Made by a program: the position numbers and the translations under genes. Of a DNA stretch of 64,000 nt, positions 1,627 through 61,120 are shown one piece after another; the stretch's first letter is position 1; each line of letters opens with the position of its first letter. Where the stretch lies: positions 89,528,001 through 89,592,000 of the forward strand of contig OZ024740.1 in the NCBI GenBank assembly GCA_964016885.1. Reading direction: 5' to 3'. The notes under the pieces are model-generated. The model was given only the letters and a program-made list of their open reading frames with translations, ran no database searches and was not told the origin of the DNA. Origin of the DNA: Eledone cirrhosa. Lineage: Eukaryota.

Positions 1627-1687
1627 TATTTTATCTGATGAGGGCGTACCAACATTTTGGTACCCTTCAAATATATATAATAACATA
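1627..1687 (+). ncRNA. Degenerate Type I hammerhead ribozyme in a short insert between (TA)n tracts
   Basis: TATTTTAT-CTGATGA-GGGCGTACCAA catt TTGGTACCC-TT-CAAA-TATATA-TA-ATAACATA. Stems I and II are present, but GAAA reads CAAA. Confidence 0.6.
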
Positions 1688-2919
1688 AATATGGTTTTAT
1701 AAATATAGTTTCCATTTATTAATATCATTGATACATATATATATATATATATATATATATATATATATATATATATATACATATGATTGCGTGTGTCTAT
1801 GTGCATTTATGTATCTGTCAGCTTCTTATGTGGATATATCCGTTATGTTAATCTAATTATATATTCATCATATATCTACATTGATTGTGCCTTATCATTT
1901 CTAATCCTACATAGCACATCTTCAAGAACATTTTCAGAAGACTACGTACTTATATCTGTGCATGTTAGGTTCTATAAATAAATATATGTTTCTACTCTCT
2001 TGACTGTTTAAGGAAATTCTACATGGTTAGGTATACTGATAATCCATGTTATTTTCTAATAATTAATCACTTTAATACAATTTCCAGAACCACCCTCTCA
2101 TATCACGCCACATCTATATACATATATATATAGATAGATACATTCATGCATAAACTCACACACCCACAAACACACACACACACAACACATCTATATATAT
2201 TTATATATATATATATATATATATATATAAACGGAAAAAATGAAACGAAATTTCATTTCTCACTTTTGTACGTCTGTATACATATATGTATGTACGTATA
2301 CATACTTATATATATATATATATATATATATATATATATATATATATATAAAATATATCAATTGCAAGGGAACAGGAAAGCGAAGTTGAAGTAAACAATA
2401 AGAAATGTGATACGTATCAATTTCTTTGGCACTTAACTGCTAAATTTCTGTCTTATTGTCAATACGCCGAAAGGAATGCTTGATATCCATCAGGAAGAAG
2501 AAACAGAAACAAATATTCATTTCATACTATCAAGCCGCTGTTCTATTTAGAATCAATGCAGAACAGCTGCATTTGATATCATATTAAAATAGAATATAAC
2601 CAGAAGTCTATGTATATCATAAATTTGACTTGGGATAATCGAAAACGGAATTACAATTTGACCTATGTTCTTAAATTTATAGGAATATATCGACAATATT
2701 AAAAAGTATATATTTTCTAAAATGGCAATTATACATGCATACATACATATGTACATATAAACAACAAGATAAATCATACTCAGAGACGCGCCCATATAAG
2801 CACACACACGCACACACACATATAGATTTTATATCATGTATATATATATATATATATATATATATATATATATATATATATATATATATATATGTGTGTG
2901 TGTGGGTGCGTGTATATAC

Positions 2920-3595
2920 ATATATTAGTTAGTATTGGTAGTTGCATCTCTGTACCAATATCAGTTGAAAATGGGGTGAAGCAGGATGTGAGGGGTGGGG
3001 GTGGCATTCCGGCTCCAACTCTGTTTTCGTTATAATTTACGTGTTTCTCGTGACATTCATGAAAAAGTGTTCGCATGGAGTTTACATCAGGTATCGCACT
3101 TCGGGAAGGTTGTTCAACATCAGGCGCTTTGGTGTATTCACGAAAGTATTAACATCTATAAACTGAGAGTTTTGTATGCAGATGACTGTGAACTTTTTGC
3201 ACACTGACAAAGTGATATGCAGCATATTATGAACTCTCTTTCTGAAGCTTGGAGCGCTTTGGCCCTCACAATAAGCTTGGGAAAAAAACTGTTGTGATGT
3301 ATCAGTGAGCACTTGGAAAAAAGTACACTACAAAAGTTTGTACATGCACGGAAAGAGGCTAAAAGTTGCTGACAGGTCTGTTTACCTTGGTAATACGTTG
3401 AACAATTCATGCACACTTGATGATGAAATATCCTTAAGTATCACGAAAGCCAATGAGGCTTTTGGACGTCTGCATGAACGTTTATGCTCCAAAAGAGGTA
3501 TCACTCTCAAAACCAAAGTAAAAGTGTATTTGACTTGTGTCGTCCCGTCTTTGGTTTATGCTTGTGAAATGTGGGTCATATACGGAAAGATCTAG
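2920..3595 (+). mobile_element. RTE-clade LINE fragment (RT C-terminal half), pseudogenised
   Basis: ENGVKQ, LYADDC and YLGNTL...DDEI..I.KA..AFGRL..R....GI.LKTK.KVY..CV.PSL.Y.CE.W motifs, with frameshifts. Confidence 0.85.
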
Positions 3596-3689
3596 ATTTG
3601 AATGGAATATCTGTTGAACTGATTCTCTGTGGAAGAAACAAGGTTGCTATGACCATTCATGGACTCGTCTTATCGGCATGACATGGAGT

Positions 3690-4575
3690 ACCTGTCCCGC
3701 AAGACCGGGTAGATGCATTTTTGCTCTCGATTTACAAAGGCAAGAGCTCTGAGTCGGAGTTTGGTGATTATCGTTGTATAAGTCTGCTTGAATCTGCAGA
3801 AAATGTATTATCCAATGTCTTGCGGAATCGTCTAATGGAATAGATTTACCCTGGTGCCATCCCTGAAACCCAGAGCGTATTTACAGCTGGGCGGGTTATT
3901 ATAGACATGATTTTCTCAGCACCCGTCAGCTTATGGAAAAGTGTCATTATACCGATATGTGTGGTACTTACCAAACTCTTTGATACTGTTAATCATAGTT
4001 GGTTATATTGGGGAAATTTCGATGCTATCATGATTTGTTGGAATATTCACAAAACTCCTTCAAAATATGAAAGCAAAAGTTAACTTCAATGGGACACTTT
4101 AAGAGCCAAATTCATAGGTTAACGTTGTTAAACTAGGTGAAATTCCTCCATCCATTCTATTCTCCATCTACGTTGTCCAAGCCTTCGAAATCGGTTTATA
4201 CTTGCGAAATAAAACTTCTGACAAATTCTTTAAATTAAGACGCTTAACACCAAGTCGAAAACATTTGGCAATGTATGTGGCTGATTTCTCCAAACAAGAT
4301 CAGGTTTTGTTGAACATCTGAAATCACATCAGCAAATGAGACACCTAGCCAACTCAGAGATTGTTCTACCAGCCCACACTCCATGGTACATTTGCAGTGA
4401 GTGTGGCTTAATTTCAAGTCAGTGGTTGGAGTGACCAGACATGGCAAAATGCATGAAGACACACCCCAGCCGGTTTTTCCAGGAAACAGACGGTCCAAGT
4501 GTCAGATCTGTGAAAGTCCCTGCTAAGAAATGCGGGTCTGAACAGCCAGCTGTATGCATATGATGGTCCAGTGTT
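3690..4575 (+). mobile_element. Second, more decayed RTE-like LINE (RT N-terminal half and C-terminal zinc-finger remnant)
   Basis: DYRCISLL, PETQS.F..GR...DMIFS and LTK.FDTVN in broken frames; 4080-4245 parallels 2940-3130; CQIC...GLNS near 4500-4550. Confidence 0.6.
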
Positions 4576-60000: not shown

Positions 60001-60630
60001 TTTATATTCAGATATAAATACCCAAATATATATACACCTACCTACATATATATTCATACATACACGCTTACAAACACAGATGATAATAGTATGGGGGAAA
60101 GGGGGGGGGTTGGAGAAGGGGATTATAGTAAATATATGTTTCAAGAAACATAGAATATTATCTGTATCTAGATCCAATGTATGTTTATACATAGTATCAG
60201 TGTTAGGAAATACAATAAACAAGGAATAAGGTAAAATTTATGCAATTCAAAATAAATAAGTATACCATTAATTATATGTTAACTAAACTAAAGATAGTTA
60301 ACATATTGATTTCTAAGGTGTAAATTAGTTAGGTTTATAATATTTGAAGCAGAATTTTGAAGTTAAATAGTAGTAGAGTATTAATTATAGTATAACTAAA
60401 TTAAAGTTAATAACTTTATGGTATCAATATTAGGAAATGAATTTAGTAATAGGGAAAAAACAAATAAAGTATTACATCGGTAGTAGAATATAAAATATAG
60501 GTTAATTAAATTAAAAATTATATATTTATTTCTATAGTATATGTTAATTAGGTATATAATAAATAAAACAGATATTGTATTTTATCAATCGCAGAATATA
60601 ATTATATGCAAATAGAAATCAAAATTAATA
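57053..60630 (-). mobile_element. Probable PLE 3'UTR (family E) swollen by TA/CA microsatellite
   Basis: 57053-57230 is inverted at 60806-60987; about 57395-59460 is inverted at about 62245-64000; degenerate HHR-like motif at 57111-57173. Confidence 0.55.
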
Positions 60631-60679
60631 CATATATATATACATATACATACATATATATATATACACATATATATAT

Positions 60680-60805
60680 GATCCTTCAGGTTGAAGTGTG
60701 GTCTTTTCAATGCCAAAGGTTCAGTTTTATCTTCAATGTTTAGTTTTTTTACTATGTTGTGTGTTTTGTTGTTGATGTTGGTGAGTGACGCATTATTAGA
60801 TTTTT
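60680..60805 (-). mobile_element. Small PLE pre-RT coding fragment
   Basis: Minus-strand translation NINNKTHNIVKKLNIEDKTEPLALKRPHFNLKDH parallels family C NINNSACDIVKKLCIDDRTQP...FNLKDHK. Confidence 0.7.
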
Positions 60806-61120
60806 TATGTGTTGTTATGTATATTTAATCTTGATAGTTTGTATAATTTTGTATAATTTTGTACATAGATCTGTTGAATATGCATGCCAACTCTAACACA
60901 TATATATCCTAGAAACGATCGTTAAATAATGAACTTTTTTTGTTTAATATAAGGAATTGTTTATTCATTATTTGTTTAATATTTTATCTTGACTCTGTAT
61001 ACTGTTTATCTTTCACCGAAAGTGATTTTTCATTACATTTCTTCTTTCCATGATATCCGGAATACATTGAGTTCTTCATACGGATTGGACACTACCGTAA
61101 ACTCTTGGTAGATTTATCTA

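Follow-up and report, generated by a model that had tools for sequence, protein, structure and literature searches.

A 64,000-nucleotide window of the Eledone cirrhosa genome (contig OZ024740.1, positions 89,528,001-89,592,000) contains 17 named sites that are type I hammerhead folds or fragments of them, and self-BLAST together with pattern searches assigns these to 11 families of Penelope-like elements (PLEs) and about 13 insertions. At a probability of roughly 0.6, we favour the reading that these motifs act as slow, weakly selected self-cleaving ribozymes, in which the fold would be kept while the non-catalytic parts drift. A preliminary description of the window had listed about 17 hammerhead motifs or remnants, all of which were recovered at, or a few bases from, the positions it gave. 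The families are referred to by letter, with H at 1627, A at 6895 and 19720, B at 7165 and 41139, C at 7447 and 9714, E at 20042 and 20152, F at 20515, K at 44.3 kb, I at 44582, D at 50506, G at 50792 and 56471, and J at 57111 and 60866. The insertions number about 13 rather than 17 because five site pairs are inverted copies inside single insertions: 20042/20152, 50792/56471, 57111/60866 and the two arms at 44.3 kb are 88-99% alike by self-BLAST, and 7447/9714, 84% alike, flank a single inverted duplication.

G5, A6, A9, G12-A13-A14, the A15.1-U16.1 pair and a non-G position 17 are present in the majority form of all 11 families, the stems of which share no sequence with one another. G8 and G12 have roles in hammerhead catalysis. 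Positions 3 and 8 covary, being C-G or U-A in every family majority, and the U3-A8 core prevails in three window families (E, F and K). Position 7 is free to vary, and two lineages depart from U at position 4, which is U in nine families, A in family A, and C in 38 of the 100 listed family G copies. Stem II ranges from 10 to 115 nt in length across the families. Judged from the sequences, this pattern of change at positions 7, 3/8 and 4 is likely the one expected under some remaining selected catalysis. Three helices with ends in stem I are supported by a structural descriptor, which exceeds its shuffled controls, and by covariation in family J.

Pattern counts were run over the whole 3.0-Gb genome with exact patterns in which the disputed core position was left free, and cores were tallied by eye on the first 100 listed matches, all on contig C1. 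The reversed-pattern controls of the family patterns gave 0-3 matches each. Leaving positions free corrected a bias of best-match DNA searches, which favour query-like copies and had made U4C look fixed. Within the window, the type I descriptor (positions 3, 4 and 8 free, stem II up to 200 nt), the scoring of which was tuned on these motifs, found 9 matches, compared with an average of 1.15 and never more than 2 when run on 20 dinucleotide shuffles. It misses B, D, 7447 and 19720, where stems are short or a mismatch is present, and the long-arm sites are missed if the descriptor requires pairing directly beside the core. A strict search for CUGANGA..GAAA with a 4-40-nt spacer gave 13 raw window matches, which include 4 of the 17 named sites (7165, 7447, 9714 and 50506). 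These are the four sites at which canonical cores had been reported, and the recovery bears out the expectation that a strict CUGANGA search would miss over half of the motifs. No hammerhead reached the Rfam gathering score in the window, where the only matches above threshold are two tRNA, and at E values up to 10 no hammerhead occurs among the matches listed (150 of 266).

Core variants and long-armed folds

The U4A cores reported at 6895 and 19720 were confirmed in both family A hammerheads. The first (6894-6944, plus strand; core CAGAAGA, C3 at 6899) has a 13-nt stem II with U.U at its base together with a full stem III, and 26 nt separate its end from (TA)n, while the second (19719-19769, plus strand) continues into an extension. 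With the position left free, the family A pattern has 28,865 genome matches, and the first 100 listed comprise 95 CAGAAGA, 4 CTGAAGA and 1 TAGAAGA; three of the four CTGAAGA cases overlap an opposite-strand copy 13 nt off and are inversion joints. When all 11 core positions were left free, 17,182 matches were obtained, with A4 in all of the first 100 listed and the exact core in 91 of them. U4A is fixed in family A, and it is inherited rather than a product of decay. The hammerhead fold of this family lies within 0.8 kcal/mol of the best fold.

In family G, the U4C cores described at 50792 and 56471 are likewise present. The minus-strand hammerhead (50788-50865) combines the U4C core CCGACGA with a 38-nt stem II and a 10-bp stem I, and its inverted partner (56467-56544, plus strand), also U4C, continues into an extension. 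Genome-wide, 2,957 matches were found, and the first 100 listed divide into 38 C4 and 62 U4. Neighbouring copies share the position-4 letter in 17 of 18 clusters. Furthermore, 20 fetched copies (8 U4C, 12 U4) fall into one C4 group and two U4 groups, each with its own diagnostic changes. Cluster agreement and shared diagnostic changes together identify U4C, by sequence grouping, as an amplified subfamily of family G, which is probably derived from U4. CpG decay as the source of the U4/C4 difference is ruled out by the same cluster agreement and by the co-sorting of the diagnostic changes. The earlier proposal that the core variants are family-specific thus holds for U3-A8 and U4A, which stay non-canonical genome-wide, and does not hold as such for U4C, the family of which is mostly canonical, with U4C nevertheless an inherited subfamily state.

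The U3-A8 cores at 20042, 20152 and 20515 were confirmed as well. The two family E hammerheads lie on the arms of one fold-back (19966-20265) of a Neptune-type PLE, one on the minus strand (20042-20079, core TTGAAAA, palindromic ACCGGT) and the other on the plus strand (20152-20189). Family F, also a Neptune-type PLE (hammerhead at 20515-20556, minus strand; endonuclease end at 20960-21112), has a U3-A8 core that reads TTGATAA in the family and TTGAGAA in the window copy, together with ACCGGT and a 2-bp stem I. Hammerheads with an ACCGGT stem III have 23,740 genome matches versus 235 for the reversed-pattern control, and the set spans E, F and several families with unrelated stems II. The first 100 listed comprise 96 U3-A8, 3 C3-G8, 1 U3.G8 and no C3.A8, i.e. 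a Watson-Crick 3/8 pair in 99 of 100.

At about 44.3 kb, where half motifs had been noted, only 3' halves of family K are present, two of which form a fold-back (44252-44396) of a Hydra-type PLE. In full-length relatives, a U3-A8 core is combined with a stem II of 54-56 nt and a stem III of 6 bp, and the hammerhead fold lies within 1.9 kcal/mol of the best fold. The 3' half has 29,597 genome matches, and 24 of the first 100 listed extend into the 5' arm. The 23 full-length copies collected with no core constraint all carry U4, G5, A6, A8 and A9; each of the four bases occurs at position 7, and position 3 holds U in 18 copies, C in four and G in a single one. The 5' halves, with 7,290 matches, show 73 U3-A8, 24 C3.A8, 2 U3.G8 and 1 U4A among the first 100 listed. 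A canonical short-stem 5' half was sought for this family genome-wide and gave only 44 heterogeneous matches. The occurrence of U3-A8 in two PLE types, Hydra and Neptune, suggests from sequence that this core had independent origins.

Five sites had been classed as decayed. This applies to 1627 (G12C), 41139 and 60866 (a 5'-truncated family J copy) and fails for 44582 and 57111, where an intact CUGAAGA on the minus strand closes a stem II of 90 and 115 nt, respectively. More specifically, the family I hammerhead (44572-44716, minus strand) has an intact canonical core with C3 at 44698, the palindromic ACATATGT, a single proximal stem I pair and a distal 7-bp helix, with a hairpin competing over the cut site. 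The family J hammerhead (57106-57259, minus strand) has an intact canonical core with C3 at 57249, the palindromic ACGATCGT, a rod-like stem II and a 10-bp stem I, and the truncated copy (60806-60934, plus strand) is without the CUGAAGA half. Both the 44582 and 57111 copies are near-identical to their families, and both families are young. The 5' half of family I has 1,838 genome matches with the exact core in 99 of the first 100 listed, and that of family J has 3,393 with the exact core in all of the first 100; a further 4,854 matches belong to a second family J group, which has a stem I sequence of its own.

Family J was aligned using 22 of 32 distinct sequences, from which junction, deletion and duplication copies were excluded, and 96.1% of cells in this alignment are paired. 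Two-sided changes occur at four pairs, three of them within stem II and the other within stem I, a level reached by 2 of 500 shuffles. Stem II arms measure 97-116 nt across the natural series of this family. Four of its hammerheads lie 6.9 kb apart at C1:420375909-420396775, and the unit read there has an intact frame with about 4 kb from stop codon to hammerhead. The long stem II at 44582 and 57111 is a larger departure from known PLE hammerheads than the core variants are.

The remaining families have canonical cores. Family H (1628-1686, plus strand) has a 26-nt stem II and the palindromic ATATATAT; its descriptor matches are canonical in 29 of 29 cases, and the window copy is decayed. Family B is represented by a canonical hammerhead (7165-7201, minus strand; C3 at 7197) with U.U and the palindromic ACAATTGT, and by a decayed copy found by self-BLAST (41139-41177, minus strand), and is canonical in 8 of 13 copies of the fetched loci. 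In family C, the minus-strand hammerhead (7447-7489), with an 18-nt stem II and a non-palindromic GAAC loop III, is the inverted partner of the plus-strand one (9714-9756), which follows a C-terminal GIY-YIG match at a distance of about 365 nt. Family D (50504-50545, plus strand) also has a GAAC loop III, with a weak stem I. Further hammerhead families were seen in the fetched loci, including a CCGAAGA (U4C) form with a 20-nt stem II (3 matches) and a U3-A8 form with a 59-nt stem II (3 matches); these loci and the ACCGGT listing also hold canonical forms with 26-47-nt stems and a U3-A8 form with a 21-nt stem II and ACCGGT.

A palindromic stem III had been described for many of the motifs. Stem III is self-complementary in B, E, F, H, I and J, with predicted duplexes of -3.2 to -10.0 kcal/mol, and it is non-palindromic in 7447/9714 (C) and 50506 (D), for which no such duplex is predicted, while A and K have a full hairpin. 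Cleavage as dimers, as had been suggested, would fit five families with a self-complementary stem III; it does not fit the GAAC-loop families (self-duplex +1.4 kcal/mol) and would be unneeded for A and K with their full stem III.

Host elements and their insertions

Clades were read from motifs because Pfam recognised only one weak GIY-YIG match in the PLE frames. Classed by the motifs of PMC8557442, seven families are Hydra-type (A, B, G, H, I, J and K) and two Neptune-type (E and F), with C and D as others. The Hydra features, a C-terminal GIY-YIG with CxCX5C linker, CxxC and CxH, are found in J, G, A, K and H, while I is placed by the linker and B on one locus; for family H, the CxCX5C endonuclease lies upstream of the hammerhead at one fetched locus. 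RWK-like and DKT N-terminal motifs occur in J, G and K, the Hydra-type families of which the N-terminus was recovered, and Hydra-type families are inserted into (TA)n. They depart from typical Hydra traits in the variant cores of A, K and part of G, and in units of 3.1, 3.7 and 6.9 kb. Family J has an 824-codon open frame in its 6.9-kb tandem units, with intact tandem copies of this PLE elsewhere in the genome, and family K a 786-codon frame between hammerheads 3.1 kb apart. Among the Neptune-type families, F has DKG and a CX2-5CxxC linker and E the linker only, and Neptune and Nematis are not separated by this assignment. In families C and D, the endonuclease is C-terminal and its linker reads CX4CxxC.

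Within the window, the element remnants lie upstream of their hammerheads in families A (4631-5953, plus strand; a broken Hydra-type reverse transcriptase (RT) and GIY-YIG frame), I (45187-47058, minus strand; Hydra-type RT and GIY-YIG) and D (48599-49909, plus strand; RT followed by the GIY-YIG domain). The family G insertion contains inverted, broken Hydra-type RT and GIY-YIG frames (52282-55204). A Naiad identity of the elements, which would have accounted for the lack of hammerheads reported in Naiads, was rejected, as the endonuclease follows the RT in every case in which the two were recovered. Non-LTR (long terminal repeat) retrozymes were rejected too, with every family linked to an RT-endonuclease frame and no short tandem motif array in the window.

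The motifs had been proposed to mark PLE 3' ends. They are indeed PLE pseudo-LTR hammerheads, and the distance from the motif to the (TA)n junction downstream ranges from 17 nt in K to about 75 nt in E; 19720, 20042, 56471 and 60866, however, continue into an extension or the next unit rather than into (TA)n. In tandem units, the hammerhead occurs again ahead of the next frame, at a distance of at most a few hundred bases. Fold-back insertions, such as 19966-20265 and 44252-44396, often turn within or just upstream of the hammerhead, and in several copies of families A and J the inversion point is no more than about 40 nt away from the core. The turning point may correspond to a transcript start or to a reverse-transcription stop.

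The window is rich in TA microsatellites and retroelement remnants. In family A, a tandem repeat of two 140-bp copies lies in the 3' untranslated region, immediately before the hammerhead (6538-6815 and 19363-19640), and one copy of a 190-bp dispersed repeat (5108-5301, 37595-37791, 42968-43157 and 49913-50104; 79-92% alike) interrupts the family A frame. Helicase frames between family J copies at a separate locus (L247:7140-9770) are presumably Helitron-like. The two tRNA-like matches above the Rfam gathering score lie at 43994-44064 and 47084-47141; the stretches 43626-43882 and 47076-47331, 90% alike by self-BLAST, are likely pieces of a tRNA-derived short interspersed nuclear element, as judged from sequence. 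About three tandem 1.6-kb pieces of one element occupy 13840-18426, which we take to be a non-LTR element with a zinc-knuckle and a restriction-like endonuclease end. Two broken copies resembling long interspersed nuclear elements with an APE-type endonuclease were found at 24072-27528 and 33475-37473 (Pfam PF03372 at 33641-34351), and a separate RT (PF00078) at 29426-31475, which we assume to bear a restriction-like endonuclease end.

Probable slow cleavage and its alternatives

Because insertions retain sequence 3' of the predicted cut site, the RNA that was copied would have been uncut or rejoined at this site. In the reading that we favour, occasional cleavage would trim read-through or tandem transcripts, helped either by palindromic stem III pairing between two hammerheads or by the element's protein, while the reverse-transcribed RNA would keep its 3' hammerhead uncut. 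Selection is regarded as weak because U4A, U4C and C3.A8 forms have been amplified: with an uncut template, fast cleavage would not be favoured, and these forms as well as long arms could amplify. In the portions of PMC11167929 considered here, hammerhead mutations leave insertion in vitro unaffected, RNA that has not been processed serves as the main substrate and cleavage depends on the protein, and metazoan PLE hammerheads are described in PMC4209133 as cleaving poorly, with low activity even as dimers.

Several observations weigh against slow, weakly selected cleavage. C3.A8, in 24 of the first 100 listed family K cores, breaks the core pair, U4C "considerably decreases activity in vitro" according to a passage of PMC3088659, and no activity measurement of U4A was found in the PLE and hammerhead literature covered. 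The three-helix fold is weak for I, F and D, where the proximal stem I has 1-2 bp; the family I alignment favours the hairpin spanning the predicted cut site, and the hammerhead fold lies above the best monomer fold by 7.7 kcal/mol in family I and 6.7 kcal/mol in family F. In families C and D, stem III consists of one pair and is non-palindromic. In family J, the basal stem II pair 19-140 is disrupted in 12 of the 22 aligned sequences, and the covariation stems from few related subfamilies, the relatedness of which is not included in the shuffle control. Moreover, conservation within young families is a matter of recent copying, not of selection.

A different explanation, which we consider rather doubtful, is that catalysis has been lost in the variant lineages and that the fold persists as a structural signal, for example a site at which the RT-endonuclease binds or initiates, or as a hitchhiker. 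The abundance of U4A (28,865 matches), of C3.A8 (24 of 100 listed in K) and of U4C (38 of 100 listed in G) speaks for such a loss, as do the normal insertion of core mutants in vitro (PMC11167929, in the parts used) and the proliferation of Naiads without canonical hammerheads, as stated in PMC8557442. A structural signal does not readily account for the general-base side G12-A14, G5, A6, A9, the A-U pair and non-G 17 being kept in 11 of 11 families, with changes falling on position 7, the covarying 3/8 pair and position 4. We hold it as a tentative possibility that the hammerhead is now mainly a structural signal for the RT-endonuclease, uncut on the template. If true, a U4 core change could spread to about 29,000 copies, stem II could lengthen to a 115-nt rod, and many PLE families scored as hammerhead-less or as having 'half cores' would carry complete long-armed hammerheads.

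It is improbable that the variants are fully active, with the core changes made up for by tertiary contacts of a long stem II or extended stem I. The end that is copied would be lost if cutting were efficient, yet the insertions keep downstream sequence, and the published metazoan PLE hammerheads cleave poorly (PMC4209133, as far as covered); these points stand against the full stem III and near-optimal folds of A and K (within 0.8 and 1.9 kcal/mol of the best), the long arm that J retains across subfamilies, and the suggestion, in passages of PMC3088659, that peripheral contacts compensate variant cores. That the variants arose by post-insertion decay of canonical hammerheads, through a CpG-type change in the case of U4C, or are chance matches, is very improbable overall. 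Decay holds for 1627, 41139 and 60866, and the U4C family is mostly U4, but genome-wide counts refute decay or chance for families A, E, F, G, I, J and K: A4 was found in 100 of the first 100 listed family A copies, the letter is the same within 17 of 18 family G clusters, the 8 U4C and 12 U4 copies sort with diagnostic changes, and the reversed-pattern controls gave 0-3 matches.

Known hammerheads and the natural series

Part of what is seen here has already been published, namely U3-A8, an extra base after A9, the palindromic stem III and dimer cleavage (PMC4209133, from the parts covered), while a fixed U4A family, C3.A8 subfamilies and 54-115-nt arms are less expected. Our families resemble those of that study in their pseudo-LTR location, dispersed truncated copies, opposite-strand pairs and U3-A8 covariation, as well as in the extra nucleotide after A9, the palindromic helix III and, in one family, a 2-bp helix I. 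In contrast, its helix II has 6-8 bp and its main text contains no U4A, U4C or C3.A8 family, whereas arms here reach 54-115 nt. The literature covered, which excludes Lunse 2017 and the supplementary figures of PMC4209133, describes no U4A and no PLE stem II above about 54 nt. From Lunse, Weinberg and Breaker 2017, as summarised in the review PMC6765202, small PLE variants with a short stem III and dimer cleavage are shared with the present set.

With Hydra-clade PLEs (Craig et al. 2021, PMC8557442, as far as consulted), our Hydra-type families share (TA)n targets, a C-terminal GIY-YIG with a CxCX5C linker, DKT and RWK-like motifs, and U.U at the base of stem II. In that account, a typical Hydra has a canonical hammerhead and a length generally below 3 kb; in its File S2, all 26 Hydra rows are CUGANGA with a stem II no longer than about 26 nt, and a spike-moss PLE-X has the longest stem II listed there, about 54 nt. 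The elements described here differ in U4A, U4C and U3-A8 cores, in stems of 38-115 nt and in units of 3.1-6.9 kb. The same source describes Naiad 'half cores' 35-50 nt apart.

The natural core variants compiled by Perreault et al. 2011 (PMC3088659) are comparable in that U3-A8, U10.1.U11.1 and a viroid U4C are active or tolerated. In the passages covered, these variants are rare and U4A is unmentioned, while here they are the majority state of thousand-copy families. The Poseidon element PAc (Frangieh et al. 2024, PMC11167929, in part) likewise has its pseudo-LTR hammerhead upstream of two alternative 3' ends (tail), but it belongs to another clade and its canonical core was assayed in vitro.

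Descriptors built on CUGANGA and a short stem II miss most window families, and hammerhead counts and reports of absence in such genomes are therefore probably too low. The role of the hammerhead in endonuclease-bearing PLEs is stated to be unclear in the sections of PMC8557442 covered. In the genome of E. cirrhosa, young families, some of which have intact frames, provide matched natural series, comprising U4 and C4 in family G, U3-A8 and C3.A8 in family K, U4A in family A and the 97-116-nt arms of family J. These series allow a direct test of whether cleavage rate matters for transposition.

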